DNA of 64,000 bases from Eledone cirrhosa (Eukaryota), in the NCBI GenBank assembly GCA_964016885.1, contig OZ024743.1, forward strand, positions 233,368,001 to 233,432,000, read 5' to 3'. A model generated the notes under the pieces. The model was not told the DNA's origin, did not search any database, and saw only the letters and a list, made by a program, of their open reading frames with translations. The translations under genes were made by a program, and so were the position numbers. Positions 3,690 to 47,652 of the stretch are shown in pieces. Within the stretch, counting starts at the first letter, position 1. Each line of letters starts with the position of its first letter.

Positions 3690-3850
3690 TCCTCAGAGCT
3701 CAAATCCTGTCGAGGTTAGCTTTGCCTTTCATCTTTGCGGGGTTGATAACATAAAGTAACAGGCACGCACTGGGGCCGACGTAATCGACTCCCCCCCCCC
3801 CAAAAAAAAAAAAAATTGTTGGCCTTGTGCCTATATAAGAAATCAATATT
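3690..3850 (+). mobile_element. tRNA-derived SINE, partial
   Basis: B-box-like gagctcaaatcc followed by the shared core gaggttagctttgcctttcatc...ggggttgataa and tail ggccttgtgcc, multi-copy in this window. Confidence 0.8.
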
Positions 3851-6585: not shown

Positions 6586-6647
6586 GCAATGCGAGGGGAC
6601 TTTTAGCAGCATAGTATATAAATGTTATTGGGACACGAGTAACATAA

Positions 6648-6832
6648 TAATTGTTTCTATTTTAGGCACAAGGCCAGCAATTACCCAGTACATTACTGGT
6701 ACTTTATTTTATCGACCCCGTAAGGATGAAAGGCAAAGTTAACCTCGGCGGGATTTGAACTAAGACCGTAAAGGGACGTAACTATGCTGGAAAGCATGGC
6801 CTCCGACTCTCTACCGATACTGCCAATCCACC
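6648..6832 (-). mobile_element. tRNA-derived SINE inserted in the 3' LTR
   Basis: Reverse complement of the SINE at 15275-15462; absent from the other LTR. Confidence 0.88.
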
Positions 6833-8544
6833 GCACAAATAATGTTTGTTAATTTGTATGGTGGAAGTTACACATAAAATGAGGTTACAAAAGGGAATGT
6901 GCCATTGTGCCAGGCCCAAGGAAGGCCGGCAGGCCAAAGTGCAAAATCTCACCGTTACATGTACGTGTTGCTCCTTCGAAGTTGGGGATGCGAGAGGCTG
7001 ATTCTTCAAATCAACGCGGGAATTTTTCCCTCAGGGCGCGTAGAGATACATTCTCTTCTACTGGCGCTGTTTGGCTAAGCTGAGCCAAATCACGCACAGA
7101 GAATGCATGTGAGCCCGCGGAATGTAGGTCACTACAATACTCCCTCTCTAGACGTAAGACGATGCAGATTATTGAATCAGCAGAAAAAAAATCTTGAAAG
7201 AGCACATCAGTGAAAAAAATAATTGAACAGAAAAATGCATGCAAGAAAAAAATGAGGCGCTAAGGGCCGTGTTGAGCCGCTGTGTCAAATGACTAGCTGT
7301 TTTGTAGTTTATACGTGACCACCAAGGGTCTAACAGAAAACGGATAAAGTCTGACATGAGCGAAGTTGCTGTTCTTGCATTAAATGTTAATGGTAAGTAT
7401 TGTACCAGTAGCTGTGGATGAAGCTATTATGGTAGTTTACCAGTGCTGGCAAGATGATGAGTAGGCGAGAAAATATCGGCCTCCCAGATGTATTGCCGAA
7501 AGTGCTAGGCAGCCAGGAAAAATGGCTGGTTGCTTTGAAAAGAAAAAAGCAAGTTGAATCTGTAGGTGGGTAGTAGTTGCAGTGTAAATTCCATAATTCC
7601 GGCGAATCCACAGAAGTGGTGGAAATGCTGACAGTTCCAGTTCCATTTGTTGTTTTCCCAGTGAGTCGAGCAAGGTAACAAGATGGAGGTTGTTATGGAC
7701 GATGAGTGTGCAACGAGATGCGAAGCTGTTTGAATCCAGCTGTAATTATCAGTTCTCGTGTTGCGCTGCCTGTTTGAATCCAGGTGAATTAAGCATGTGT
7801 CGGCACCTCAACCAGGTGAAAAGGGATCTCGCAGAATATTACGTCTGAAGAACATATACTAAGAACAACATGGTGTGTGTCAAAGAAATGTGTGTGCATA
7901 TGCAGGCATGTAGTACAGCAAAGAATGTGTGGGTGCAGTCATATATACAATGATAAAGAAAATGATGCAATCATATATACAATGATAACAATTTTTTCAT
8001 ATAATGCGGTTTAAAAAAAAAATGTCCAAACATTGCTTGTAAAAAAAAGAAAGAAATAATTGTTTCTTAACACACAGTTCGCTTTTTCTTTTCTTTGGGA
8101 TCGCTCTTACTAGGAAGCTAGTAGAGTTGTTGTTGTTGTTGTTAAAGCAAAGTCACTGTGAATCTTCTGTAGAATCGAAGTCGAGCGTTGAAGAGCCTAG
8201 AGTCACCAATATGCCAGTCACGTCTGACGCCATAGTGATGAGAAGACTGATGTCTTAATTTCTCGAATCCCTGTGGTAACGAGACAGAAGGTATGGTGGT
8301 TGCGTCGGTAAAGTTACAAGCTGCCACAACGCTATTCCCTGGTGTTGGTTAGTAGTTAAACATGTTATCGCTGCTGCTGATGTATTTGGTAGTGGTGATA
8401 GCCATATGTTGCTGCTGATGCCTGGTAGTAGAGAAGTACTTGGTGGTAGCCATTTTGAAATTTCCTCCTGGCGTAAATTTTTTTATACATACACTGCCAA
8501 TTTTAATTTTATTTCAAAAGGAATATTTTGAACTGAAAATATTC

Positions 8545-11916: not shown

Positions 11917-12021
<105 letters not shown>

Positions 12022-12033
12022 GAATGTATGTAT

Positions 12034-12575
12034 AGTATATTTAGTAATATACCGTATGTTTAATTTAAAACATTTTGAAGACCTTGCGCTATTATTTTAA
12101 AGTAGTGACTATGTTACTTACTTCGTTTTTCGACAAAGGAAGGGAGAGAAGCTGACAGATTTTGTTTCACACTGTTGGTGTTCCTCAGAGCAACGTATTC
12201 GCTGACCTCTGCCGAAAATTATAGAGGCTGGATTCTTATAGAATTCCAGTAATAATCAATTCATGTATACATCGCTATTTAATAGCACCAATCCTGATTT
12301 TTTATTTTTGCTGGACCGGCAATCGCTCTGTATAATCAGTTCCTGATTATTACTGGAATTCTATAAGAATCCAGCCTCTATAATTTTCGGCAGAGGTCGG
12401 CGAGTACGTTGCTCTGAGGAACTGTGAGCATCTCTCCCTTCCTTTACCGAAAAAAGAAGTAAGTGACATAGTCACTACTTTAAAGTGATAGCGCAAGGTC
12501 TTCAAAATGTGTTTAATTAAACATACGGTATGTTACCAAATATACTCTACATCGCTATTTCAGAGCACCAATCCT
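12034..12575. mobile_element. Fold-back HHR cassette between (TA)n tracts
   Basis: Inverted arms 12034-12258 and 12344-12546; 28 nt direct repeat at 12268-12295 and 12548-12575. Confidence 0.85.
12151..12191 (-). ncRNA. Minimal type I hammerhead ribozyme, canonical core
   Basis: gct-CTGAGGA-acac/caaca/gtgt-GAAA-ca/aaatc/tg-TC-agc. Confidence 0.8.
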
Positions 12576-12682
12576 AATATATATAGTAATAATAATAAAT
12601 TTGAAGACTAAAATCCAAAGAGGGCTCGATGAGGATAAATATATATCAGATATATAAGAACCGTAGAGCAAATATTAAATAT

Positions 12683-12747: not shown

Positions 12748-13075
<328 letters not shown>

Positions 13076-13382
13076 ATATATGTATATATATGTTAGTAGA
13101 TATGAATTCTTTATTATTATCTCCAAATTATTTGTCGAGCAATATTGGCCATGACTGCTGCTACTGTTGTAGGCAGGCCGCTGTCTTATTAGAAAACCAC
13201 TTTCCACTGATTGACCTCGATGTCACGTGTTCGATTCTTTTTGAATTTGCCACAGACGTAGAGGCAGTGATTTTCTCAATGGCTTGGAATTCAGTCCACG
13301 CTTCGCTATTTCCTATCCACTGAATTATTTTTTAATAAGTTTCCACTGTCCTCGCTTTGCCTGGAAACTTACATGAGAATAG

Positions 13383-13465
13383 ACTTTCCTGACGACGGAA
13401 TGCTTCTCTATATTATTCTTCGGAAAATATATTTACTCCATTCCAGAAACTAATTAGTTGGAAGT
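13383..13465 (+). ncRNA. Type I hammerhead motif with extended stem II
   Basis: actttc-CTGACGA-cggaatg..cattcca-GAAA-ctaattag-TT-ggaagt; 6 bp stem I, palindromic ACTAATTAGT stem III. Confidence 0.75.
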
Positions 13466-13519
13466 GATATTTTAGTAAGTAAGTTAATTTTATAATTTTC
13501 TTATTTTACGTCTCTTATA

Positions 13520-15240
13520 TATATATATATATATATATACATAAATACAAAAGAAATCTATATTAGTAGCATGACACAGTCCGTTCATCATATGAATCGA
13601 TCCGCTCTGTTATTGTGTCGTTTCTCCCTTTCCTTCTTGTTGTCCTGCTTCCTTTGGTTTTCAATATTGACCCTTACATCGTGGATTAGCCTCCGCCATA
13701 TTGGTCTGTCATCGACATAATGCCTCCAACAGTGAAGAATGTTACCTTCTTTTCAAAATATCTTTGATCGTGTCCTTATACCTCAAGAGAGGGCGTCCTA
13801 CATGTCGAACACCATCCACAAGCTCACCAAAAAGAAGTTTCGTTATAGGTCTACAATCATCCATGCAGATGACATGGCCAACCCATCTGAGTCTATTCCT
13901 TATGAGGATAGTTTCAATATCAGGAATCTTTGCACGTTTCAGTACCTTATTGTTTGTGTCAAAGTGGTCCCATTTGATGTTGAGAATGAACCTTAGGTGT
14001 CGTTGCTGAACTGTTCTTAACTGTCTTATGTAGGAACGATGGAGAGTCCACGTCTCACTTCCATACAGCAAGAGAGGGGTTACACATTGGTTATAAACTT
14101 TGGCTATAAAGGTTAGTCTCAGATGTCAGTTGCCTGGATTCAAAGACTCTCACTCTTAGTTTACCTACAGCACAAGAGGCAACTTGAATACGTGCACTAA
14201 GTTCATCTAGTTTACAGTCTTTGCTGACATAGCTGTCAAGATACTTAAAACATTCCATTCTGGCAAGTTTTTGCCCATCAATGAAAAAATCAACTTGCTC
14301 TCCGACACTCATTATTTCGGTCTTCTTAATGTTGATACGAAAGCCGTTTTCAATGAAACTGTGTTATATGCAGATAACAGCTGCTGTAGAGCAATGGGAT
14401 CATTGCAGAAAACAGCGATGTCATCAGCATATTAGGCCTCCCTTATGAAATCAAGTATCTTTGTCTTGGACTTGAGGAGACGAAGATAAAAAATATCCCC
14501 ATCATATTTAAAGCGTACTTTGATGCAGTGTGAGGAGCTGACTTCTATAAAGGCTATAAAGAACTGTACAGCAGCGTAGAACCCAAACAGTGTAGGGCAA
14601 GTTTTCAGACTTGCTTCACCCCACTATTTTAGTTGATGGGGTTCGATAATTCGCCATCTATAATAAACCTAGCATTCATATTTGACTATAGAGTCCTGAT
14701 GATATTAACAAATTTTGTTGGACAGCCAAACTTTCTCAGGATTTCGAAGAGTAGTTCTCGATTGTTTCATTCAAAAGCCTTGGTGAAGTCTATAAAGGCG
14801 ATGTGTAAATTACACTGCTGTTCTCTGCATTTCTCCATAATTTGACTTAAGGTGAAGATGCCATCTATAGTGTTTCTATTCCTCCTATATCCAGATTGTA
14901 ACTTAGGGTACAATTTTTCAGCAATCCGCTGTGGTCTCTGGAGTATGATGTCAGCAAAGAGTTTCCCAACCACATTAATCAATGCCACGGTAGTTTTCAC
15001 AAAGACTACGATCACCTTTCTTAAAAGGGATAGAAATGTTAGCATCAATAAAGTCAGATGGTAAGCTTTCTGAGATGCAGAACCGATTAAAAATAGAAAG
15101 CAGAGATGTTGTGAAGGCATTGCCACCATTAACTAAAACCTCTGGGATTAATTCATCAGGACCTGGACTCTTCCTGAGTTTAGTGTTTTTGAGTGCTGTC
15201 TAAAGTTCTTTCATGGTAATAGGGTTGTTAAATTCGTCAA
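13520..15240 (-). mobile_element. RTE-clade LINE, 5' truncated, degenerate RT
   Basis: ORF fragments QSGYRRNRNTIDGIFTLSQIMEKCREQQCNLHIAFIDFTKAF, YADDIA, FKYLDS, LYGSETWT, RLRWVGHV, LFGELVDGVRHVGRPLLRYKD; (TA)n tail. Confidence 0.88.
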
Positions 15241-15274
15241 TGATTGGTTGTTGCTCCATTTCATTATGTATACA

Positions 15275-15568
<294 letters not shown>

Positions 15569-17235: not shown

Positions 17236-17675
17236 TTATGACCCTTTGCGTTCTGAGTTCAAATCCGCCGAGGTCGATAAAATAAAGTACCAGTACCAGT
17301 AATGCACTGGGATAATTGATGGCCTTGTGCCAAAAGTAGAAAGAATTATTAGAAATAAATAATTGTTTCTACTTTTGGCACAAGGCCAGCAATTATCCCA
17401 GTGCATTACTGGTACTTTATTTTATCGACCCCGTAAGGATGAAAGGCAAAGTTAACCTCGGCGGAATTTGAACTCAGAATGGCAAGGGCCGTAACTCTAT
17501 GCGTAAAAGCATGGCGTCCGACTCTCTACCGATACTGCCAATCCACCACCCTAGAGTTCAAATTCCACTGAGGTTTACTTTGCCTGTCATCCTTACGGGG
17601 TCGATAAAATAAAGTACCAGTAATGTACTGGATAATTGCTGGCCTTGTGCCAAAAGTAGAAACAATTATTAGAAA
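17236..17675. mobile_element. Cluster of three SINE copies (+ 17236-17355, - 17358-17547, + 17554-17675)
   Basis: Same SINE core in alternating orientations. Confidence 0.85.
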
Positions 17676-17914
17676 TAAATTATTGATCATATGCAAAAGA
17701 GAATGATTGCCTTTTATTATCAGATACCATAAAGATACTGATGAAAAGGCCAAGAAAAGGATATATGCACGTGACATTTGGAATTGCCGTGCCTCGGGTG
17801 CCCTCTCTTCACAATGGTTTCGGGGTCCAGTCATGGCTACCACCGTATAATCATGGCTACCACTGCATTTTTTAACTGGCCTTTCATTCACGCATTGCTC
17901 ACTAAACTACTTAC

Positions 17915-18554: not shown

Positions 18555-18742
18555 TATTAATTGGCACTATCGGTAGAACGTCAGACACCATGCTTCGCGG
18601 CATTGAGTTACGGCCTTTATGTTCTGAGTTCAAATCCCGTCGAGGTTAGCTTCGCCTTTCATGTTTACGGGGTCGATAAAATAAAGTACCAGTAATGCAC
18701 TGGGGTAAATGCTGGCATTGTGCCAAAGGTAGAAACAATTAT
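18555..18742 (+). mobile_element. tRNA-derived SINE
   Basis: Same family as 15275-15462. Confidence 0.85.
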
Positions 18743-19100
18743 TTAAAATAATCTACTGATCCTGTATCACTTTCTTAAAGTTTATAATTTTGATTCAGAC
18801 TATTTCCTATCTCAGTAATGTTGGTGTAACAAACAGTTTGTCTTCCAGTCACAAGGACCTATGTTCTTCAGTTGTTCTTGTTAATAGTTATTTCTCCAAA
18901 GATACTCATACATTCAATTCTGTATGTCATTTGTACATATATCAGGGCCGGTGGAAACATTTCTGAATGGGGGTGGATGGGTGGGGTAAAGTCCACCATC
19001 AACACCACACTGCTACCACCACCACTACCACCACCACCACCACACTGAACCACAACTGCTTCCGGACCCAAAACGGGCTTACAGCACTTTTGTCGACCAT

Positions 19101-19751
19101 GTGGACCACCGAAAAAGAGGTATCTTCTTCCTGGATGCACCTGGAGGTACAGGGAAAACTTTTGTAACGAAGCTCCTCCTTGAAAAAGTTAGGCAGCATA
19201 GGGTTATCGCGGTAGCTGTTGCCTCCTCTGGGATTGCTGCTACTTTGCTGCCCTGTAGCAGGACAGCGCACTCGACTTTTAAACTCCCCCTGAATTTAGC
19301 AACATCTGAAACGCCTAACTGTAACATCAATAAAAGCTCAGACCAGGGTCAGGTCCTCAAATGGTATCATCTCATTGTGTGGGATGAGTGCACCATGGCC
19401 CACAAAGGCGCTCTGGAAGTAGTAGATACAACCCTTAAATATATCAGAGATTGTCATGCTCCAATGGGAGGTGTAACGCTTCTGTTGTCTGGTGAATTCA
19501 GACAGACTCTTCCTGTCATTCCCAAAGGTACCAGGGAAGATGAAGTCCAGGCGTGCCTTAAATCCTCCCCATTGTGGCGACACGTTACGACCCTGACTCT
19601 TACCACTAACATGAGAGCTCAACTACACGGTGGCCACATGTCCGCCAGGTTTCCACAGGACATTTTGACACTTGGCGATGGCAAGGTGCCTCTCGACGCT
19701 GCCGGAGAAATGGACGTCTGGCCATTTTGTATCATTGTTAATCATTGTTAA
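19101..19751 (+). pseudogene. Helitron Pif1-family helicase fragment
   Basis: FFLDAPGGTGKT, VASSGIAATLL, LIVWDECTM, GEFRQTLPVIP, LTTNMR; ends at a microsatellite, no Rep domain. Confidence 0.9.
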
Positions 19752-20236: not shown

Positions 20237-20809
20237 GGGAGGAGGTTATAGTTCACTTGAAGCATTGTGTAATGAGGTATAAACGTTAGAATATGTGTAA
20301 TAAGGCCAAGACAATGCAGATATGGACATAGAAAAAGAATGCAATAGTGAGAGATATTGGTGAGAATTAGTCTTTCACCTTGAATTTATTTAAATGTCCT
20401 TAATTTTCGAGATAATATCTCTTCTTCGGAGGGAAGTAAAAGTCTCAGACCAGCGTCTAAATTTCCAATGAAGCCATGCTGACCGGAAATAGTATAGAGT
20501 TCTAACTTTAATATCAAAGAATTAAAATTAGGTGGGTAAAGAGTAGTCTCCCTTTAAGAGGGGTTTGTTTATGTTTTTGTTGTGTTATGTAAATTTTATA
20601 TGCGTGCCTGTATATGTGTGTGGGAGAAAGCATGAAGGTGTAGGTATGTGTGTGTGTGTGAGTGTGGGAAGATAGGTCTAATCGTAAAAGTGGGGGGTAG
20701 GTGTTATCTGGTGTTAGAACTGGTTTTGTGTGTGTATGTGTGAGAGAGAATAAGTGGGGGTGTGTGCGTGCGTGTGTGTGGGGTGTGTAAAGTGGGGCTA
20801 GAGGCCCTA

Positions 20810-23392
20810 TCAGGTTATAAATTGGGTGTTGAGCTCTAGTCTATTATTGATTGGTGGATGTGTTCTATCTATAATGAGTGCTTCCTTGATTCTAAGATTA
20901 CCGAGGTTTCTTTCTTTAGTTTCTATCCTAACTGTTATGTTTTTATCAGTGTTTTTGCATTTAACTAGGTGTTTCTTAAATGAGGAAGCGTTAGTATTGA
21001 GGTGTTCTTTTATTCTTATGTGGAGTGGTCTGGTGGTGCTACCTACGTAGAAGTTGTTGCATTTGTCACACTCTAGTCTGTAAACTACGTAAGCCTGGTG
21101 GCATAGGTCTGTGTCGTTGATGGGGCAGTTGGCTAGTCTGCAGCAGTTGTCATGTCTGGTGGAGTGTCTCTTAGCTAGCCGTCCACGCAAAGAAGGACCC
21201 GAATGGGCCAGTTGAATATCCAGACCTTCTCGTCTGATGGCTCTGCGGATGGCTGTTGTTGTTTCTTCACTGAAGTGTGGGAGCTTCAGGAAGCAAGTGT
21301 TAGTGCCTCGGGTGTGGTGTCCTCTGTTCTTTCTGGCACGGTTTGTGGTGGATGTCGTGTATCCGTTCAGTTTGAGTACTTCCAGGAAATGTGTGGTGTG
21401 TGTGTCTCGGTCTCTGGCGTCGGTGCATTTGTTCTTGATACGTGCCAGTTCGTTCTTTATGTATCCGAACTTGGCACCGAGTGGGAGGGCCGATCTGAAA
21501 TGTACGAACAGGTCCCTGCTGGCGGATTTTTTATAGAAGCAGGTGTGGATGTTGCCTTCCTCTGTTACCCTGAGTTGGAAGTCCAGCAGGGATAGGGATC
21601 CGCGGTCATCGGGGTGTTCAATGCTGAACTTTATACTGGCGTCCATGCTGGAGAATGTTGTGTATATTTTCTCTGCCTCTTCACGGGATGATGTAAGGAT
21701 GAGTATGTCATCTACATATCGGGTGAAGAAGGCATGGGAATGGCAGGTGTTGAGGGCTCGGCATTCTAGCTGGTTCATGTAAGTGATGGCCAGCAGGCCA
21801 GAGAGGCTGGATCCCATGGGTAATCCTGTTGTCTGTCTGTATGTGTGGTGGTGGAAGGTGAAGTACGTGTTGTCTACCGTGAAGGACAAAAGTTGGTGTA
21901 TGTCCGTCGGGTGGAGGCCGTAGCAGTGGATGTTCTCTGCGACCACGCAGTCCGTCAATAAATCGACAGCTGGGTGAGCGGGGACTGTAGTGTAGAGGGA
22001 GACAACGTCGAGGCTAAAAGCGTATTTATTAAGTTTAAGTTGTTCTGGCTGGAGTTGGTGTAATCTACGTATAACTTCGTCGGAGCTACTGACATGTCCG
22101 GGGAAGGTGGAGAGTAGAGGCTTGAGGACCTGGGAGAGAAGCCAGGAAATTTTGTATAGGGGTCCTTCTATGCTAGAGACGATGGGTCTTATATGCGTCT
22201 TAGTGCTATTCTTGTGGGTCTTGATGAGGTGGTAGAAAGTGGGCAGTCTGCTATTTCTAGTGGTGTAGTTGAGTTTAATTTTATTCGGGAGTTGTCTTCT
22301 CCTACAGATATCGAACCAAATGGAGTTGGTCTGTTTTTCGATTTGGGCTGCGGTCATGTCCGGGATCACTGTGTACAGTTCACTGTCGCTTAGGTGTTCG
22401 AAGGCTAGGTTATTGTATGTGGCTTGAGAGATGACGCAGAACTCTTTACCTTTGTCGGATGGTAAGTAAATAAGTTCCTTATTCCGTAGGTTCTTCAGGG
22501 CGAGTTGTTGTGTCCTGGAGAGGTTAGGGGCCATCTTCTTCTGTTTCCGTAAGATGTTAAATACGGAATGTTTTAGTCTCGAGAGTTTATCTTCCAGCTC
22601 GCGGTTGGCGGGCGGTGGATAGAGTGGGCGATCTAGTTGGTATATCGGGAATCTGGGTGTGGTGGATTCCGTGGTGTTGTTGTCGAGAGTCGATATCCAT
22701 TTCAGTTGGTAGGCAGCTCGACAGAAATTCGTTTCTATGTCGAGCCATAGTCTGTCGTCCAGTCTCTGTTTCAATATGAATTTGGGACCCAGGCTGAGGA
22801 GGTCTAATTCCTCTCGGGAGAGGGATCCTGTCAAGTCTGTGACGAGGTGTTTTGCGTCAGGTGTGTTGTTGGTCGGGGTGCCGCTAGGTTCGGTGTTGGT
22901 AACGTATTGTTCGCCTCTGTTGGTGTTTGGCGTTGGGATGTTGTTAAGACAGTTGGCCGTCCTGAGTTTGAGAAATTTTTGTGTTAGGCGTTTTTTCTCG
23001 TAGTCTCGGCGGTGGTGGTATGACCTGTCTATAGTGGCGGAGATGACCTTGGACAGAGGTTCTGGGGTTTCAGCGAGTTGTGGTACAAGGCTGGAGATAG
23101 TCCGTATGTGATGTTGTAGCGTGCGGTGTAGGTGTTGTATGAGTTTTCTTAGGCAGAATTTTTGTATGTAACTGAGAGATCGTTTGAGGCCTGGTGAATT
23201 GAAGAATGTTGGTAGGTGTAAATTTTTGATGGTTTTGGGAATGATGTTGTTGTTCAGGCATCGTTTTAGGAAATTTATTTGGCAGCCGGCTTTGGCGCGC
23301 TTTTCAGATAGCTGGAAGAGTTTCTTTACAGTTGTGAACTGGGCCTGGCTCAGGCGTAATGAAAGGAGGAGGTTATAGTTCACTTGAAGCAT
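20810..23392 (-). CDS. PLE polyprotein, RT + GIY-YIG endonuclease, 860 aa, intact
   Basis: SDKG, FYHLIKTHK, IRPIVS, SLDVVSLYT, GLPMGS, RYVDD, VVYRLECDKCNNFYVGSTTRPLHIRIKEH, KEALII..HPPIN. Confidence 0.95.
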   Translation of the reverse strand: MLQVNYNLLLSLRLSQAQFTTVKKLFQLSEKRAKAGCQINFLKRCLNNNIIPKTIKNLHLPTFFNSPGLKRSLSYIQKFCLRKLIQHLHRTLQHHIRTISSLVPQLAETPEPLSKVISATIDRSYHHRRDYEKKRLTQKFLKLRTANCLNNIPTPNTNRGEQYVTNTEPSGTPTNNTPDAKHLVTDLTGSLSREELDLLSLGPKFILKQRLDDRLWLDIETNFCRAAYQLKWISTLDNNTTESTTPRFPIYQLDRPLYPPPANRELEDKLSRLKHSVFNILRKQKKMAPNLSRTQQLALKNLRNKELIYLPSDKGKEFCVISQATYNNLAFEHLSDSELYTVIPDMTAAQIEKQTNSIWFDICRRRQLPNKIKLNYTTRNSRLPTFYHLIKTHKNSTKTHIRPIVSSIEGPLYKISWLLSQVLKPLLSTFPGHVSSSDEVIRRLHQLQPEQLKLNKYAFSLDVVSLYTTVPAHPAVDLLTDCVVAENIHCYGLHPTDIHQLLSFTVDNTYFTFHHHTYRQTTGLPMGSSLSGLLAITYMNQLECRALNTCHSHAFFTRYVDDILILTSSREEAEKIYTTFSSMDASIKFSIEHPDDRGSLSLLDFQLRVTEEGNIHTCFYKKSASRDLFVHFRSALPLGAKFGYIKNELARIKNKCTDARDRDTHTTHFLEVLKLNGYTTSTTNRARKNRGHHTRGTNTCFLKLPHFSEETTTAIRRAIRREGLDIQLAHSGPSLRGRLAKRHSTRHDNCCRLANCPINDTDLCHQAYVVYRLECDKCNNFYVGSTTRPLHIRIKEHLNTNASSFKKHLVKCKNTDKNITVRIETKERNLGNLRIKEALIIDRTHPPINNRLELNTQFIT

Positions 23393-24236
23393 TGTGTAAT
23401 GAGGTATAAACGTTAGAATATGTGTAATAAGGCCAAGACAATGCAGATATGGACATAGAAAAAGAATGCAATAGTGAGAGATATTGGTGAGAATTAGTCT
23501 TTCACCTTGAATTTATTTAAATGTCCTTAATTTTCGAGATAATATCTCTTCTTCGGAGGGAAGTAAAAGTCTCAGACCAGCGTCTAAATTTCCAATGAAG
23601 CCATGCTGACCGGAAATAGTATAGAGTTCTAACTTTAATATCAAAGAATTAAAATTAGGTGGGTAAAGAGTAGTCTCCCTTTAAGAGGGGTTTGTTTATG
23701 TTTTTGTTGTGTTATGTAAATTTTATATGCGTGCCTGTATATGTGTGTGGGAGAAAGCATGAAGGTGTAGGTATGTGTGTGTGTGTGAGTGTGGGAAGAT
23801 AGGTCTAATCGTAAAAGTGGGGGGTAGGTGTTATCTGGTGTTAGAACTGGTTTTGTGTGTGTATGTGTGAGAGAGAATAAGTGGGGGTGTGTGCGTGCGT
23901 GTGTGTGGGGTGTGTAAAGTGGGGCTAGAGGCCCTATCAGGTTATAAATTGGGTGTTGAGCTCTAGTCTATTATTGATTGGTGGATGTGTTCTATCTATA
24001 ATGAGTGCTTCCTTGATTCTAAGATTACCGAGGTTTCTTTCTTTAGTTTCTATCCTAACTGTTATGTTTTTATCAGTGTTTTTGCATTTAACTAGGTGTT
24101 TCTTAAATGAGGAAGCGTTAGTATTGAGGTGTTCTTTTATTCTTATGTGGAGTGGTCTGGTGGTGCTACCTACGTAGAAGTTGTTGCATTTGTCACACTC
24201 TAGTCTGTAAACTACGTAAGCCTGGTGGCATAGGTC

Positions 24237-25434
24237 TACATAAAGAACGAACTGGCACGTATCAAGAACAAATGCACCGACGCCAGAGACCGAGACACAC
24301 ACACCACACATTTCCTGGAAGTACTCAAACTGAACGGATACACGACATCCACCACAAACCGTGCCAGAAAGAACAGAGGACACCACACCCGAGGCACTAA
24401 CACTTGCTTCCTGAAGCTCCCACACTTCAGTGAAGAAACAACAACAGCCATCCGCAGAGCCATCAGACGAGAAGGTCTGGATATTCAACTGGCCCATTCG
24501 GGTCCTTCTTTGCGTGGACGGCTAGCTAAGAGACACTCCACCAGACATGACAACTGCTGCAGACTAGCCAACTGCCCCATCAACGACACAGACCTATGCC
24601 ACCAGGCTTACGTAGTTTACAGACTAGAGTGTGACAAATGCAACAACTTCTACGTAGGTAGCACCACCAGACCACTCCACATAAGAATAAAAGAACACCT
24701 CAATACTAACGCTTCCTCATTTAAGAAACACCTAGTTAAATGCAAAAACACTGATAAAAACATAACAGTTAGGATAGAAACTAAAGAAAGAAACCTCGGT
24801 AATCTTAGAATCAAGGAAGCACTCATTATAGATAGAACACATCCACCAATCAATAATAGACTAGAGCTCAACACCCAATTTATAACCTGATAGGGCCTCT
24901 AGCCCCACTTTACACACCCCACACACACGCACGCACACACCCCCACTTATTCTCTCTCACACATACACACACAAAACCAGTTCTAACACCAGATAACACC
25001 TACCCCCCACTTTTACGATTAGACCTATCTTCCCACACTCACACACACACACATACCTACACCTTCATGCTTTCTCCCACACACATATACAGGCACGCAT
25101 ATAAAATTTACATAACACAACAAAAACATAAACAAACCCCTCTTAAAGGGAGACTACTCTTTACCCACCTAATTTTAATTCTTTGATATTAAAGTTAGAA
25201 CTCTATACTATTTCCGGTCAGCATGGCTTCATTGGAAATTTAGACGCTGGTCTGAGACTTTTACTTCCCTCCGAAGAAGAGATATTATCTCGAAAATTAA
25301 GGACATTTAAATAAATTCAAGGTGAAAGACTAATTCTCACCAATATCTCTCACTATTGCATTCTTTTTCTATGTCCATATCTGCATTGTCTTGGCCTTAT
25401 TACACATATTCTAACGTTTATACCTCATTACACA
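24237..25434 (+). repeat. Upstream pseudo-LTR (ORF 3' end + 544 nt UTR)
   Basis: Direct repeat of 27364-28549; minus-strand counterpart at 23393-24237. Confidence 0.92.
25268..25302 (+). ncRNA. Minimal type I hammerhead in pLTR (U4C core variant)
   Basis: cct-CCGAAGA-a-gagat/att/atctc-GAAA-at-TA-agg with AATT palindrome; identical copies at 28395-28429 (+), 23525-23559 (-), 20398-20432 (-). Confidence 0.68.
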
Positions 25435-28017
25435 ATGCTTCAAGTGAACTATAACCTCCTCCTTTCATTACGCCTGAGCCAGGCCCAGTTCACAACTGTA
25501 AAGAAACTCTTCCAGCTATCTGAAAAGCGCGCCAAAGCCGGCTGCCAAATAAATTTCCTAAAACGATGCCTGAACAACAACATCATTCCCAAAACCATCA
25601 AAAATTTACACCTACCAACATGCTTCAATTCACCAGGCCTCAAACGATCTCTCAGTTACATACAAAAATTCTGCCTAAGAAAACTCATACAACACCTACA
25701 CCGCACGCTACAACATCACATACGGACTATCTCCAGCCTTGTACCACAACTCGCTGAAACCCCAGAACCTCTGTCCAAGGTCATCTCCGCCACTATAGAC
25801 AGGTCATACCACCACCGCCGAGACTACGAGAAAAAACGCCTAACACAAAAATTTCTCAAACTCAGGACGGCCAACTGTCTTAACAACATCCCAACGCCAA
25901 ACACCAACAGAGGCGAACAATACGTTACCAACACCGAAGCTAGCGGCACCCCGACCAACAACACACCTGACGCAAAACACCTCGTCACAGACTTGACAGG
26001 ATCCCTCTCCCGAGAGGAATTAGACCTCCTCAGCCTGGGTCCCAAATTCATATTGAAACAGAGACTGGACGACAGACTATGGCTCGACATAGAAACGAAT
26101 TTCTGTCGAGCTGCCTACCAACTGAAATGGATATCGACTCTCGACAACAACACCACGGAATCCACCACACCCAGATTCCCGATATACCAACTAGATCGCC
26201 CACTCTATCCACCGCCCGCCAACCGCGAGCTGGAAGATAAACTCTCGAGACTAAAACATTCCGTATTTAACATCTTACGGAAACAGAAGAAGACGGCCCC
26301 TAACCTCTCCAGGACACAACAACTCGCCCTGAAGAACCTACGGAATAAGGAACTTATTTACTTACCATCCGACAAAGGTAAAGAGTTCTGCGTCATCTCT
26401 CAAGCCACATACAATAACCTAGCCTTCGAACACCTAAGCGACAGTGAACTGTACACAGTGATCCCGGACATGACCGCAGCCCAAATCGAAAAACAGACCA
26501 ACTCCATTTGGTTCGATATCTGTAGGAGAAGACAACTCCCGAATAAAATTAAACTCAACTACACCACTAGAAATAGCAGACTGCCCACTTTCTACCACCT
26601 CATCAAGACCCACAAGAATAGCACTAAGACGCATATAAGACCCATCGTCTCTAGCATAGAAGGACCCCTATACAAAATTTCCTGGCTTCTCTCCCAGGTC
26701 CTCAAGCCTCTACTCTCCACCTTCCCCGGACATGTCAGTAGCTCCGACGAAGTTATACGTAGATTACACCAACTCCAGCCAGAACAACTTAAACTTAATA
26801 AATACGCTTTTAGCCTCGACGTTGTCTCCCTCTACACTACAGTCCCCGCTCACCCAGCTGTCGATTTATTGACGGACTGCGTGGTCGCAGAGAACATCCA
26901 CTGCTACGGCCTCCACCCGACGGACATACACCAACTTTTGTCCTTCACGGTAGACAACACGTACTTCACCTTCCACCACCACACATACAGACAGACAACA
27001 GGATTACCCATGGGATCCAGCCTCTCTGGCCTGCTGGCCATCACTTACATGAACCAGCTAGAATGCCGAGCCCTCAACACCTGCCATTCCCATGCCTTCT
27101 TCACCCGATATGTAGATGACATACTCATCCTTACATCATCCCGTGAAGAGGCAGAGAAAATATACACAACATTCTCCAGCATGGACGCCAGTATAAAGTT
27201 CAGCATTGAACACCCCGATGACCGCGGATCCCTATCCCTGCTGGACTTCCAACTCAGGGTAACAGAGGAAGGCAACATCCACACCTGCTTCTATAAAAAA
27301 TCCGCCAGCAGGGACCTGTTCGTACATTTCAGATCGGCCCTCCCACTCGGTGCCAAGTTCGGATACATAAAGAACGAACTGGCACGTATCAAGAACAAAT
27401 GCACCGACGCCAGAGACCGAGACACACACACCACACATTTCCTGGAAGTACTCAAACTGAACGGATACACGACATCCACCACAAACCGTGCCAGAAAGAA
27501 CAGAGGACACCACACCCGAGGCACTAACACTTGCTTCCTGAAGCTCCCACACTTCAGTGAAGAAACAACAACAGCCATCCGCAGAGCCATCAGACGAGAA
27601 GGTCTGGATATTCAACTGGCCCATTCGGGTCCTTCTTTGCGTGGACGGCTAGCTAAGAGACACTCCACCAGACATGACAACTGCTGCAGACTAGCCAACT
27701 GCCCCATCAACGACACAGACCTATGCCACCAGGCTTACGTAGTTTACAGACTAGAGTGTGACAAATGCAACAACTTCTACGTAGGTAGCACCACCAGACC
27801 ACTCCACATAAGAATAAAAGAACACCTCAATACTAACGCTTCCTCATTTAAGAAACACCTAGTTAAATGCAAAAACACTGATAAAAACATAACAGTTAGG
27901 ATAGAAACTAAAGAAAGAAACCTCGGTAATCTTAGAATCAAGGAAGCACTCATTATAGATAGAACACATCCACCAATCAATAATAGACTAGAGCTCAACA
28001 CCCAATTTATAACCTGA
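25435..28017 (+). CDS. PLE polyprotein, RT + GIY-YIG endonuclease, 860 aa, intact
   Basis: Same protein as the minus copy except three residues (PTF/PTC, TEP/TEA, KKM/KKT). Confidence 0.95.
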   Translation: MLQVNYNLLLSLRLSQAQFTTVKKLFQLSEKRAKAGCQINFLKRCLNNNIIPKTIKNLHLPTCFNSPGLKRSLSYIQKFCLRKLIQHLHRTLQHHIRTISSLVPQLAETPEPLSKVISATIDRSYHHRRDYEKKRLTQKFLKLRTANCLNNIPTPNTNRGEQYVTNTEASGTPTNNTPDAKHLVTDLTGSLSREELDLLSLGPKFILKQRLDDRLWLDIETNFCRAAYQLKWISTLDNNTTESTTPRFPIYQLDRPLYPPPANRELEDKLSRLKHSVFNILRKQKKTAPNLSRTQQLALKNLRNKELIYLPSDKGKEFCVISQATYNNLAFEHLSDSELYTVIPDMTAAQIEKQTNSIWFDICRRRQLPNKIKLNYTTRNSRLPTFYHLIKTHKNSTKTHIRPIVSSIEGPLYKISWLLSQVLKPLLSTFPGHVSSSDEVIRRLHQLQPEQLKLNKYAFSLDVVSLYTTVPAHPAVDLLTDCVVAENIHCYGLHPTDIHQLLSFTVDNTYFTFHHHTYRQTTGLPMGSSLSGLLAITYMNQLECRALNTCHSHAFFTRYVDDILILTSSREEAEKIYTTFSSMDASIKFSIEHPDDRGSLSLLDFQLRVTEEGNIHTCFYKKSASRDLFVHFRSALPLGAKFGYIKNELARIKNKCTDARDRDTHTTHFLEVLKLNGYTTSTTNRARKNRGHHTRGTNTCFLKLPHFSEETTTAIRRAIRREGLDIQLAHSGPSLRGRLAKRHSTRHDNCCRLANCPINDTDLCHQAYVVYRLECDKCNNFYVGSTTRPLHIRIKEHLNTNASSFKKHLVKCKNTDKNITVRIETKERNLGNLRIKEALIIDRTHPPINNRLELNTQFIT

Positions 28018-28545
28018 TAGGGCCTCTAGCCCCACTTTACACACCCCACACACACGCACGCACACACCCCCACTTATTCTCTCTCACACATACACACACA
28101 AAACCAGTTCTAACACCAGATAACACCTACCCCCCACTTTTACGATTAGACCTATCTTCCCACACTCACACACACACACATACCTACACCTTCATGCTTT
28201 CTCCCACACACATATACAGGCACGCATATAAAATTTACATAACACAACAAAAACATAAACAAACCCCTCTTAAAGGGAGACTACTCTTTACCCACCTAAT
28301 TTTAATTCTTTGATATTAAAGTTAGAACTCTATACTATTTCCGGTCAGCATGGCTTCATTGGAAATTTAGACGCTGGTCTGAGACTTTTACTTCCCTCCG
28401 AAGAAGAGATATTATCTCGAAAATTAAGGACATTTAAATAAATTCAAGGTGAAAGACTAATTCTCACCAATATCTCTCACTATTGCATTCTTTTTCTATG
28501 TCCATATCTGCATTGTCTTGGCCTTATTACACATATTCTAACGTT

Positions 28546-28578
<33 letters not shown>

Positions 28579-39379: not shown

Positions 39380-39432
<53 letters not shown>

Positions 39433-40092
39433 ATATTAATAAATGGAAACTATATTTATAAAACCATAATTATTTTATTATTTATATTTTAAGGGCAACC
39501 AAGGAAAATGTTGGTGCGCTTTCATCAGATAAAATACAAAATTTGTTTTATAAATTTTGACATACCCGTAGAAAAACAACCTTGACGGTTGCATGTTCTC
39601 TGGATAGTGGAAAAAATTATTTTTTTTATTTAGGGTAATTCAAAGTTATGTGAGTATGCAAGTGAATGTCAGAAAGAGTTGCAAAAACAACGGTTTATTT
39701 AAATTATACTGTTGGAAGAAGAGAGAGGAAAAAACAGAGAAAAAGAGAAAGAGAGAAGAAAAAAGAGAAGAAAAAAGAAAAAAAGAGAAAAGAGAAAGAA
39801 AAAGAGAGAAGAAAGAAGAAGAAATGGAGAAAGAAAGAGAGAAAAATTATAGTGAAAAAAAGTTAAGGAAGAACGAGCGAAGAAATAAGCTTAACAAGGG
39901 ATGAGTATGTAAATCATAAATATATCGTTCTTTTATGCTATATTTATATTAAAAATAATGATAAATTAAACATGTTGATAAGTTAAAAATAATGTTAAAT
40001 TAAAAATATATTACAATAAAGATGTGTTTAAAATATATTAAAATATATTAATAAGAATATATGGGTATAGATGGGTATGTCATGTTATAGAT

Positions 40093-40330
40093 CAAAGGTT
40101 CTCAACGTGGGGCATACGCACCCCCGCGAGGCGTTTCGGAACTCCAGGGGGGCGTTTGCAAGCAAGGTCGCGTTAGGGGGCCATTTAGAGCTGGGGGAGG
40201 GGGTTAGAGGGGCGCTGGAAGGCTCTTTATTTTGGTAAGTTATATAAGCCATATTTGTATGTCTTTGAGACAGCCAGTGTGAATGCATTTGAATGAGCTT
40301 GCAGACAGCATAACTATAATCTGACCACAG
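40093..40330 (+). mobile_element. hAT-type MITE fragment
   Basis: Starts with CAAAGGTTCTCAAC, the same TIR as at 44631; GC-rich subterminal repeats; right end uncertain. Confidence 0.6.
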
Positions 40331-41020
40331 AGTTTACAAAAGATTAAATACTTAATTAAAAGTATATACTAAAACATTTAAATATTCAAACTATAAAAAT
40401 TAAGACTATAAAAATTAAGATTATAAAAAACTATAAAGAAGTTTTAAGAGATTTTTTAGAAATCTCAAAAAGACTCCAAAGATACACAAAAATATTTTAA
40501 AAAGCTTATAAACTATTCATAAATTATAATTAACATCTAAAATTATTCAAAATATAAAGAAGTATTCAGAAATATTTGAAAATACTTAAACACTTAAAAT
40601 ATTAAAAATATTTAAAAGTGTTTAAATATTGGAAAATATAAAATTAAAAAAATATTAAAATATTAGTTGACCAAAAAGAATAATTTTTTTTATATAATTT
40701 TTTTTTTTTTAAATATTTAAAAATTTTTTAAAAGCTTTTAAAATTTTCAAAAAATTTTGAAGAGATTTTTAAAAGTTTCAAGTAATCATTCCGAAAGGAT
40801 TATGAGATATTTTTGGAAGTAAGATAGATAAAGGTAAAATATATATTTATAAGGTAGAAATATTAAAAAGTAAATATTAGAAGTAAATTAGAGATTTAAG
40901 TAAAATATATTAAAATTAGAGTTAGATTAAATTACTGAACATATATGGATATAATTTAAGAAATGAGATTATAGGTGTTTGGATAGAGTAAACATTTTGT
41001 AGGGAAGATTAAACGTGTAA

Positions 41021-42376
41021 TTACATTTTATATATATATTTTAAAGTTGAATTTAAACGATGTTTACAAGAACTAAATAAATTATTACGCAAATTAATGG
41101 AGTTCTTACATTTAAGTATAAAGAATATTTCCTCAACACATAAGTTGCAAAATTTGGATAAAGCTGTGTTTGTGTAGGCATGTGCTTTTGAAACAATATT
41201 ATAAAATAAAGAATAGTTTATATTCTTGGATTTTAAGTTCCATAATAAGTTGGATAGAGAAGTTGAAGATTTTTTACCAATATTCCTAAACGAAAATTTA
41301 TGGTTATTGAAACGAGATTTGAAGTCTGTAGAAGTAGAGCCAACATAGTTAACAGAGTTATCATTGGTTTTGACATTGCATTTATAAACCACATTTTTAA
41401 CTAAACAGTTATTTTTTAAAGGACAGTTAGATTTAATTCTACAATTACAATTATCAGAATTTAAATTATTATTATATTGGATATTGCTAGATGTATAAAT
41501 GCTAATCTGGTTAAGGTTTAGATTTCTATTATTGATTCTATTTATATTCTGTGCTAAATTCATAGTAGTAGAGTATGATAGTTTAATTGTATGTCTGTTA
41601 AAGATTGAATAATATCTATGTGCTCTGGGAAAACAATTATCAAGAGCTTTAAAAAATAGTTTAGCTAAAGGTGTTTTAATACTTAGTGAGAAAGGGGGAG
41701 CATATCAAATTATGTTTCTAGTTCTATTTCTTCTTTTAGTTTTAGAGTTTGTGCTAGAATTATTATAGTTATAATTATAATTATGGTTAATTGACGTATC
41801 ATTATTGTCGATGTATTTAATTTCATTACTATAGCCTGCTCGACTTAAAGCTTCGTTATAATATTCTGCCTTATCTTCAAATATATTTTTATTCGCTGAG
41901 ATTCTAGAAATACGTTGCTGTACGGAATTTACGATGGTGTTCTTAACAGATCTAGGGTGATTAGAGTTAAAGTTAACATAATTTAAATTTTCATTGATTT
42001 TATGAAATGGATAGTACATCCCAGTATTAAGGTTTAATGTTACATCTAAAAAGTTAATTATTTTATAATTATTCTCTATTTCTAACTTAATATTAAAGCT
42101 ATTAAAAAATTGTATTATTGATTTTCTTTTTCTATTGATTTCACAATCATTATTATTTTCAATTAACAACAACATATCATTACGATATAAACCACCGATC
42201 ATCTCCGGTAGTTTTCTATGTAATGCATTGTTAATAAAAAGCCCCACACGATCCGTTAATTGCGCCGAGTCCGATGACCCCATAGTAATATCGAAATTGT
42301 TATCCCTATCTGCTCTAGTCCAAAGATAGTTGTTAAATTTAATTAAGGTTTTACGTGCAGTTAAAATGATATGCAT
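41021..42376 (-). pseudogene. Naiad RT + GIY-YIG ORF remnant
   Basis: ORFs 41705-42376 and 41021-41563 are in frame, split by one TGA at a conserved Trp position; catalytic YRDD mutated to YRND. Confidence 0.85.
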
Positions 42377-42513
42377 TTCGTCGCTAGATAGATCAGTATA
42401 TTTAGATGCATATATAAGGGCTTTATTAAGTAAATTAGGAGTGATAGATGAGTAGTAATATCAGTTATACAACTTTTAAGCTTGTTGAATCCCAACAAAT
42501 TAAATATAACTTT

Positions 42514-42556
<43 letters not shown>

Positions 42557-42558
<2 letters not shown>

Positions 42559-42759
42559 CGAAGGAAATGTGGTAAGGAACCAGGTGGACCATAACGCACC
42601 AAAGAACTCAATACTTAGGGTAGTAGAGTGGGTAATAGGAACGAGTAGGACCCCGACGGCTGAGCTCAAGCCGTTTCGACGGCTAATTCTGGACTAAAAT
42701 TTTAGTCCAGAATTAGCCGTCGAAACGGCTTGAGCTCAGCCGTCGGGGTCCTACTCGTT

Positions 42760-42761
<2 letters not shown>
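42557..42761. mobile_element. Fold-back cassette with a perfect 122 nt palindrome and 3' halves of an HHR
   Basis: Palindrome 42639-42760; GAAA-cggct/tgagctc/agccg-TC-gggg in each arm; related piece at 34871-34914; (TA)n on both sides. Confidence 0.85.
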
Positions 42762-42809
<48 letters not shown>

Positions 42810-42814
<5 letters not shown>

Positions 42815-43250
42815 ATATTAAATAAATGGAAACTATATTTATAAAACTATATTTATTCTAGTATATATATTTCAAGGGTAGCAACACTTTGGTACGCTTT
42901 CATCAGATAATATACAAAGTTTGTTTTATAAATTTTGACATAGCCAAGAAAAGATACCTTAACGGTTCAAGTTTTTCTTGACTATCCAAGAAAAACTTGA
43001 ACTATTAAGATATCTTTTCTTGGTTATGTCAAAATTTATAAAACAAACCTTGTATTTTATCTGATGAAAGCGTACCAAAGTTTTGGTACCCTTGAAATAT
43101 ATATAATAGAATAAATATAGGTTTATAAATATAGTTTCCATTTATTTAATATCATTGAATATTATACTCCAGAAAACTTGTCGAGGGCTCCAAATCAGTT
43201 ATAAACATTTATATTTGTTGAATTACCAACAAATTGAATATCCTTTTTGC
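42810..43250. mobile_element. Fold-back pair of Naiad-family pLTR ends
   Basis: Imperfect palindrome 42810-43157 centred near 42983; homologous to 39430-39615; (TA)n on both sides. Confidence 0.88.
43053..43113 (+). ncRNA. Type I hammerhead ribozyme, canonical core
   Basis: tattttat-CTGATGA-aagcgtaccaaa/gt/tttggtaccctt-GAAA-tatata-TA-atagaata; mirror copy at 42854-42914 (-). Confidence 0.85.
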
Positions 43251-43272
43251 TTATATATATATATATACACAC

Positions 43273-45786: not shown

Positions 45787-45790
<4 letters not shown>

Positions 45791-46467
45791 AATAAACAAG
45801 AGAGATGAACACTATATAAACATACATTTGTTCGAATCGTAAGGACTAAAATTTGCTAGGGTGAAAAAATACTAACTACTCCAATATAGTTTGTTATCCT
45901 TAACTTTAAATATTAAATTAAGAAAAATTAAGAAAAATTAAGAAAAATAACAGACCTATATTGGGCAAAAATGCGCCATCATGTAGAGCTAATTTTTATT
46001 GTCATGTCAGCCAGGCTGCTATTTTTAGCGGCAGGGAATTTCGAGACAAGCTGGGTTCCGAATGACACGTGCGATAATTCATATCGTACACAATTCATTC
46101 TCTAATATTTTTAGAAGTGAAAGGATCACTAATTTCTCAACAACTACCGAGGAGCAGAGAAACGTGAGAACTTCACTTAATAAGTCGTTGCGAAACAGTC
46201 TCCAACACTGTCTAGTTGTTACCAGGCATTTTTGCCCAATATAGGTCTGTTATTTTTCTTAATTTAATATTTAAAGTTAAGGATAACAAACTATATTGCT
46301 GTAGTTAGTATTTTTTCACTCTAGCAAACTTTAGTCCTTACGATTCGAACACATGTATGTTTATATTAGTGTTCATCTCTCTTGTTTATTCAATTATATT
46401 GTACGGCTCGGAAAAGCTTTTTTCTTAGAGCTATTTAATTGTAAGAGACTACCCTGAGTTCTTAACT

Positions 46468-46470
<3 letters not shown>
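45787..46470. mobile_element. Fold-back HHR cassette between (TA)n tracts
   Basis: Arms 45787-45974 and 46226-46394; 251 nt spacer carries the HHR. Confidence 0.88.
46139..46220 (+). ncRNA. Type I hammerhead ribozyme (U4C variant)
   Basis: aacaacta-CCGAGGA-gca..tgc-GAAA-cagt/ctccaac/actg-TC-tagttgtt; 8 bp stem I, 5 bp stem III, GUC site ending at 46212. Confidence 0.8.
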
Positions 46471-46549
<79 letters not shown>

Positions 46550-46550
46550 A

Positions 46551-47332
46551 TTTTAACCTGATTAGTTCTTTCGTTACTTTGGTATTGGAGGGCTGGGTTT
46601 TGCCTACCGCAATTTTCAATTTGTCAAGCTATTTAAACGTATGTATTACTCTAAGGAGTGCTTTGCTACTCATTCCTTATTGTAGGGGGACCTTGCTTGG
46701 CCACAGCCAAAGCTTCGATTTTACTAAGCTTCTACTTGTACTATTTTCTCCTAGACTTAATAATTAACTAATTAATTTAATTAGACAATTCTGTTGATTG
46801 GTTAATTATTTGTGTTTGTTTAATAACGTCTGGTTGAGAGCTTTTATTCGTTGAGTGGAAATATTTTTTCCTTTGTTAACACTTTGAATTTACTCGCCAA
46901 AAACCGGGGGTTGCTTCCCTTGTTGGAAATAACACGTGACAACGAAATGTTTGACGGCTGTCTATTGTAGCGGTCGCATTTAGTTTGTTCACACCAGTTT
47001 GAGGCAATTAAACGGAATGCCTGTTGATGAAATGAATCCCCTGTTCGATCATGGAATACCACAAGCTTACATGTTACGTAAGTTGGATAGATGATTTCGG
47101 ATTCATAGAAACATATCGGACGTATAGCAGAATATCGTCCGATTTGTCCAGGTCTGTTTTTTAACTTGATTAGTTCTTTCGTTACTTTGGTATTGTATGG
47201 TTGGGTTTAGCCTACCGCAATTTTCAATTTGTCAAGCTATTTAAACGTATGTTATTACTCTAAGGACTTACCCTTATTGGGTGCTTTGCTACTCATTCCT
47301 TATTGTAAGTCGACTTTGCTTGGCCACAGCCA
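46551..47332 (+). mobile_element. Retrozyme-like non-coding element, ~608 nt monomer with ~170 nt terminal redundancy
   Basis: Direct repeats 46551-46710 and 47159-47332; HHR just upstream of the second repeat; related fragment at 44900-45110. Confidence 0.75.
47020..47152 (+). ncRNA. Type I hammerhead with extended stems II and III
   Basis: cctg-TTGATGA-aatgaatcc..ggattcata-GAAA-catatcggacg..cgtccgatttg-TC-cagg; GUC site ending at 47148. Confidence 0.8.
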
Positions 47333-47652
47333 ATATATATATAAATCTACATTCATACATATATACATACATACATTTAAGTATGTATATAGCTATGCAT
47401 TTATACATTTGTATATATCCATGCATTTATATTTAAGTGTGTTGACATGATTTATGTTGTTTTATTTTTTGGTAAGGAGAAAATTTTTGTCTACAGATTT
47501 TATTACCAAGGGAGATTAAATACCACAGCTCTGGCTGAAAGCTGATCAGGTTCTGAACCTCATCAAACACTAACGCCGGCCTGTGTGTGTATGTATGTAT
47601 GTATGTATGTATGTATGTATGTATGTATGTATGTATGTATGTATGTATGTAT

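Follow-up and report, generated by a model that had tools for sequence, protein, structure and literature searches.

A decayed, ORF-less fold-back cassette combining a predicted hammerhead ribozyme of retrozyme type with the apparent insertion signature of Penelope-like elements

Metazoan non-LTR retrozymes are described in PMC7229834 (Cervera and de la Pena 2020) as non-coding, strongly self-paired units of 150-450 nt with a GC content below 50%. Retrozymes as such, a model of more-than-unit cDNA and the role of Penelope-like elements (PLEs) as likely mobilizers are already published in the accessible text of PMC7229834 and PMC7761336. The latter, a 2020 review, presents animal retrozymes in that text as having no conserved motif that points to a mobilizer. 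In a preprint by Li, Clavereau and Pollet (10.64898/2026.07.22.740005), animal retrozymes are argued to derive from pLTRs, and solo monomers are counted. The retrozyme-PLE link is drawn there from homology and co-occurrence, with the mechanism left open, and a word search of the available text returned neither "tail" nor "head-to-head."

According to PMC8557442, endonuclease-positive PLEs insert as partial tandems, often accompanied by a 5'-truncated copy in inverted orientation and by a tail of 30-40 bp at one end, and PMC3846280 describes palindromes at inverted PLE junctions. In vitro, the target of a PLE protein is AT-rich DNA, of which both strands are cut and extended; reverse transcription starts at two internal RNA sites whose spacing equals the tail, and the main substrate is uncleaved RNA (PMC11167929). 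Circles have been proposed as templates of PLEs (PMC4209133).

The cassette studied here lies in a 64-kb window (the whole stretch of DNA that was analyzed), which is microsatellite-rich, transposon-dense and animal-like. Its features, including an intact and a dead hammerhead ribozyme (HHR), are the following.

11948..12027, no strand: left flank and insertion target, an (AT)n microsatellite grading into ATGT-like repeats
12028..12258, minus strand: inverted arm, 231 nt, a 5'-truncated copy without the tail, 194/209 identical to 12344-12552
12148..12198, minus strand: type I HHR with an intact core; helix I with a 4-nt bulge, helix II of 4 bp with a 5-nt loop, helix III of 3 bp with a 5-nt loop
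12259..12267, no strand: arm-arm junction, 9 nt, by direct reading of the sequence
12268..12295, plus strand: tail, 5' copy; possible start at 12266
12296..12547, plus strand: rest of the unit
12332..12350, plus strand: hairpin with an 8-bp stem and a 3-nt loop, where arm-arm homology starts
12404..12432, plus strand: dead HHR that retains its bulge, helix I and the first core box but has lost 22 nt
12548..12575, plus strand: tail, 3' copy, reaching 23-30 nt beyond the inverted arm's end
12576..12600, no strand: right flank, a short (TA)n followed by (TAA)n

The analysis established the anatomy of the cassette, the asymmetry of its arms, its terminal redundancy and the structure of its HHR. 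The plus block begins and ends with a direct repeat of 28 nt (12268-12295 and 12548-12575). An earlier, sequence-only reading had taken the two copies to be the same; the period of 280 nt holds, and the copies are identical at 26 of the 28 positions. Among 500 dinucleotide shuffles of the cassette, the top direct self-match of a 28-mer was 21, and none reached 26. When reverse-complemented, the inverted arm (12028-12258) matched 12344-12552 at 194 of 209 aligned bases with a single 22-nt gap, which a local aligner displayed as 8+14 nt. Restoring these 22 nt to the 280-nt period implies a unit of 302 nt. Both the repeat and the arms are about 7% diverged, which fits a single insertion event and is also compatible with two close events. 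The terminal 5-7 nt of the inverted arm can be assigned equally well to target DNA, and the 5' tail copy begins 0-7 nt from the arm's 3' end. An extension of this arm to 12279 was tried and dropped because 12268-12279 matches the 3' repeat at 12/12 positions. At the junction, we found a perfect 10-nt palindrome (12263-12272), and bases 12252-12265 echo the hairpin start (12332-12345) at 12 of 14 positions. The segment behind the first tail is part of the element and not filler because it pairs with the far end of the unit (~12305-12327 with ~12484-12507) and thereby closes the HHR domain (-17.8 kcal/mol). In folding of the cassette, no predicted helix joined the tail to the segment that follows it. 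Inspection of the flanks by eye revealed no target duplication beyond simple repeats.

As judged from its sequence, this layout is the known PLE insertion signature. It comprises a head-to-head inverted 5'-truncated copy with a junction palindrome, and a partial tandem in an AT-rich/(TA)n target. The one-sided extension measures 23-30 nt, a range set by the assignment of the 5-7 ambiguous bases, versus 30-40 nt for the published tail. The arms end at +126 and +149 from the HHR site; the first value becomes +119 when the 7 ambiguous bases are counted as target DNA. We used as a control a coding element of the window, with reverse transcriptase (RT) and GIY-YIG domains, located in (TA)n at 20238-28549. 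It has two head-to-head arms, each exceeding its 3127-nt unit, which end at +123 and +163 from the HHR site. This PLE is very young: its arms are 99.9-100% identical, each with an open RT+GIY-YIG frame of ~860 aa, and it is potentially active. Minimal HHRs were found in it at 20429, 23556, 25271 and 28398, and its 40-nt tail contains the first nine codons. A protein search with the ORF of the neighboring PLE gave 136 relatives, nearly all unnamed, and no solved structure was found.

Further short fold-backs with a one-sided 3' extension in (TA)n were found at 42558-42764, 42811-43251 and 45789-46468. The same layout in the coding PLE and in these three cassettes makes the fold-back ordinary here, and the 28 nt are therefore best read as a tail. 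The fold-back and the 28 nt singled out by the earlier reading are real features, although it had overlooked that they are best read as the standard inverted copy and tail of PLEs. The fold-back at 42811-43251 is ORF-less and HHR-bearing, and it matches a decayed coding PLE at that element's 3' end, with 143 of 169 positions identical. Because it derives from a coding PLE family, the combination of a fold-back, an HHR and no ORF is not diagnostic. It has HHRs on both arms and an extension of ~88 nt, and it lies upstream of the decayed PLE of the same family at 39427-42510 (minus strand), whose linker contains a CxCx5C motif of the kind reported for the Hydra clade and which has a 3' HHR remnant near 39530. 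The fold-back at 42558-42764 is a near-perfect 126-nt palindrome in (TA)n with a one-sided extension of ~81 nt; no HHR was found in it by descriptors. The one at 45789-46468, also in (TA)n, is ORF-less with a one-sided extension of ~76 nt. It contains a well-formed type I HHR (46147-46212) with an 8-bp helix I, a long loop 2 and C for U in the first core box, and an Rfam search of this fold-back gave no hammerhead match. The extensions of 76-88 nt in these three cassettes are about twice the published tail length.

Several other repeats surround the cassette. An inverted repeat at 12849-13760 (217-241 nt, 97-98% identity, tail-to-tail) consists of 3'-end sequence from a LINE-like fragment with an RT (13544-15132); it shares no sequence with the cassette. 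A multicopy SINE-like family of ~190 nt is present at 3693-3775, 6645-6844, 15262-15464, 17269-17688 and 18560-18761, with nested fold-backs at 17269-17688. At 46547-47333, an element with direct terminal repeats of ~165-180 nt (86%) follows (TA)n(TG)n. Helicase-bearing fragments at 18990-19751 and 50707-53932 resemble Helitron remnants.

The inverted arm had been noted before to keep a canonical HHR (12151-12191), and we confirmed a type I HHR with an intact core and helices I-III. On the minus strand, the core box CUGAGGA lies at 12188-12182, and cleavage is predicted after 12154. A strict HHR descriptor, whose thresholds were picked after the motif had been seen, gave one match in the window and none in 40 shuffled windows. 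An Rfam scan of the whole window returned 61 matches, mostly microsatellite or hairpin artifacts (including MIR1319 on the fold-back), and no hammerhead family. When a 171-nt stretch was searched, Hammerhead_HH9 was found at 19.5 bits (E 0.011), below the gathering score of 52; the bulge and loop 2 of the cassette HHR align with the corresponding HH9 positions. In the plus arm, the loss of stems II and III previously put at ~25 nt is a deletion of 22 nt. Gone with it are helix II, the GAAA box and half of helix III, namely its 5' strand and loop. In a single-gap alignment, the cleavage-site C of this HHR is changed too. The proximal 6 bp of helix I pair at 5/6 positions in the plus arm and 4/6 in the inverted arm, the distal 5 bp at 4/5 and 3/5, and the 13-bp closing helix at 12/13 and 13/13, respectively. 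The base of helix II in the remaining HHR is A-U instead of G-C. The active fold is 4 kcal/mol less stable than the MFE structure, and its helices reach probabilities of at most 0.09; a read-through transcript of the cassette would fold into a long hairpin (-339 kcal/mol). These predicted energetics and the read-through hairpin argue against present-day HHR activity.

In its predicted structure, the cassette HHR is of the retrozyme type with a canonical layout. In PMC4209133, the canonical layout consists of a 6-bp helix I, a 4-bp helix II and a helix III, and it is set against the minimal HHRs that most animal PLEs carry. This distinction has exceptions: some PLE HHRs are listed with a small helix III in the same paper, and the coding PLEs of the Hydra clade are said to have canonical HHRs (PMC8557442). 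In the window, the HHRs of the coding PLEs differ from that of the cassette, one being without helix III and the other having a long helix II region.

Next, we considered the recurrence of the tail. Among the four short fold-backs tested, only the cassette with the plus block at 12268-12575 had a tail recurring inside the element. The internal tail-match score was reached by 0 of 500 shuffles here versus 150, 38 and 83 of 500 in the three others. A seeming terminal repeat in the 45789-46468 cassette was not significant (16/200 and 150/500 shuffles reached it). The pLTR of the coding control is preceded by the end of that element's own ORF. By the same logic, what precedes the "pLTR" of the cassette is its own tail, which gives the 302-nt unit, and we infer that the 280-nt period is the true unit. 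The unit, 280 nt as found and 302 nt when restored, has a GC content of 38% and a longest ATG frame of 39 codons; the cassette contains 1.09 units. Compared with 100 shuffles, circular folding gave a z of -4.85 when the 280-nt unit was taken as it stands at the locus and -2.75 when both arms were combined into a composite of 302 nt. The linear fold had a z of -6.22 here versus -1.47 and -0.89 for two PLE pLTRs; it was -3.36 for another cassette and -2.11 to 0.41 for five arbitrary stretches. An ORF-less monomer of ~305 nt, copied slightly more than once, had been proposed from the sequence, and it stands as the simplest reading with the size corrected to 302 nt.

No second copy of the cassette was found in the 64-kb window by blastn and nhmmer, which matched only the two arms, and the tandem arrays of the unit that the sequence-only reading had suggested looking for were not seen there. 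Three additional matches with two mismatches to a 13-nt tail motif were found in the window, versus 1.9 expected. Of eight alignments between the unit (both strands) and four other PLE-like regions in the window, none rose above shuffle level. Of three exact motifs searched in one supplement file of PMC8557442, two were absent and the third matched twice in an unrelated context. An exact 22-nt scan of bacterial and archaeal genomes gave 0 matches, as expected, and is uninformative for an animal element.

How the cassette relates to described systems follows from these features. With non-LTR retrozymes (PMC7229834 and preprint 10.64898/2026.07.22.740005), it shares a canonical type I HHR, a non-coding, self-paired unit within 150-450 nt, a GC content below 50% and the co-occurrence of coding PLEs. 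Retrozymes are assigned on at least two tandem units, each with an intact HHR; with 1.09 units and one intact HHR, the locus is not classed as an active retrozyme and is at most a solo monomer derivative. Its head-to-head fold-back and tail go unmentioned in the accessible text of these two papers. With endonuclease-positive PLEs, it shares the inverted 5'-truncated copy, the junction palindrome, a one-sided extension read as the tail, the partial tandem, the AT-rich target and an HHR upstream of the 3' end (PMC3846280, PMC8557442, PMC11167929). It differs from them, as far as these accounts go, by having no RT/GIY-YIG ORF inside or adjoining it, by a tail of 23-30 nt and not 30-40 nt that is repeated at the 5' end with a period of 280-302 nt, and by an HHR with helix III and a loop-loop layout. 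MRC1 of Chlamydomonas is likewise ORF-less, with pLTR-like partial tandems presumably moved in trans, whereas most Chlamys elements have no canonical HHRs and the host is an alga (PMC8557442). SM-alpha of Schistosoma and related HHR repeats are also short and non-autonomous with a type I HHR, a likeness drawn by description only (PMC8490949, PMC6155905).

The cassette is a real feature and is best read as a putative non-autonomous PLE derivative that would work like a retrozyme moved by PLE machinery. Specifically, it is probably a mini-PLE, that is, an ORF-less, retrozyme-like unit of ~302 nt that was copied 1.09 times by a PLE reverse transcriptase and left one decayed insertion. The alternative that survives best, though somewhat unlikely, is a coding PLE so heavily 5'-truncated that only its pLTR was inserted. 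The extra 28 nt would then come from an RT jump with re-initiation at the tail, or from a second insertion beside an earlier tail, and the 280-nt period would be accidental. A coding family in the window did produce an ORF-less pLTR fold-back (42811-43251), dual HHRs on opposite strands 100-700 bp apart are ascribed to truncated PLEs in PMC4209133, and template jumps of PLEs are proposed in PMC3846280. Moreover, the 5' tail copy falls where the two RT starts are presumed to lie. The plus arm also has an ATG at 12507 whose frame stays open over the remaining 23 codons of the plus block; it may be an ORF start as in pLTRs holding one, though the inverted arm has two stops there. However, the truncation requires an extra event, the repeated tail is absent from all three other short fold-backs, and the RT of the coding control continued into its own ORF with no jump. 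In addition, the HHR type is unlike those of the window's two coding PLEs, and the unit had no similarity to the pLTR of either.

A non-PLE route for the insertion of a retrozyme-like unit is improbable, whether by LINE twin priming or through a later inverted duplication of the inserted DNA. In general, DNA-level processes can generate inverted repeats, and RTE-like and other non-LTR RT fragments are present in the window. The part of the RNA that twin priming inverts lies upstream and does not overlap the rest, whereas both arms of the cassette carry the same 3' region. Also against this route, the element has no poly(A) or simple-repeat 3' end of its own, and its layout is common to the coding PLE and three further (TA)n cassettes. 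The 28 nt as a target-site duplication (TSD), an alternative raised by the earlier reading, or the cassette as a MITE was rejected as extremely unlikely: direct repeats do flank a 252-nt stretch and long inverted repeats are present, but the 5' copy sits between the arms inside the fold-back, the inverted arm stops where the repeat starts, the flanks proper consist of simple AT repeats, the two inverted arms are of unequal extent, one being prolonged by the tail, and contain a ribozyme, and no TSD was seen.

For the mini-PLE reading, we infer the following steps of insertion. The RT/GIY-YIG protein of a PLE would have acted in trans on the unit RNA, its endonuclease cutting an AT-repeat target. 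Reverse transcription would then have begun inside the RNA at two sites 23-30 nt apart, ~119-126 and 149 nt 3' of the HHR site, so that only one of the two arms received the tail. The longer cDNA would have passed the uncleaved or re-ligated HHR and one whole unit and entered the tail again, for which a tandem transcript or a circle is needed. That both arms cross the HHR site shows only that the template was uncleaved or re-ligated. The arms may have been joined head-to-head at the hairpin, and later decay would account for the ~7% divergence and the 22-nt deletion. Of the previous proposal of a retrozyme circle or tandem, the retrozyme type of the HHR is borne out, and the data fit a circle and a tandem transcript alike. 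It is possible but unlikely that the PLE RT rolled once around a ~302-nt retrozyme circle, from the second start site through a full turn to a stop at the first, the priming site of the other arm. The 5' tail copy lies 0-7 nt from the end of the other arm, a position that a full turn would explain, but so would RT re-initiation or pausing. If such a turn did occur, retrozyme circles would carry the PLE tail as a cis-acting RT signal, the insertion footprint would name the mobilizer, and circle-templated integration could be tested in the existing in vitro PLE assay.

Since its only intact HHR lies on a single strand, no monomer can be released from the locus, which is now inert as a monomer source. 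In the open literature, we found no report of the tail and inverted-copy signature on a retrozyme-type unit; the supplements of PMC7229834 and of the preprint may list the family. The cassette would confirm an expected retrozyme-PLE link on the basis of one decayed copy and overturns nothing. Its footprint fits the idea that PLEs spread such mini-elements, of which a single copy is no proof. A simple genome-wide test would be whether the ends of retrozyme insertions fall at two fixed positions downstream of the HHR. A retrozyme-type unit with a PLE tail, an inverted copy and more-than-unit length would add insertion-footprint evidence for the link between retrozymes and PLEs.
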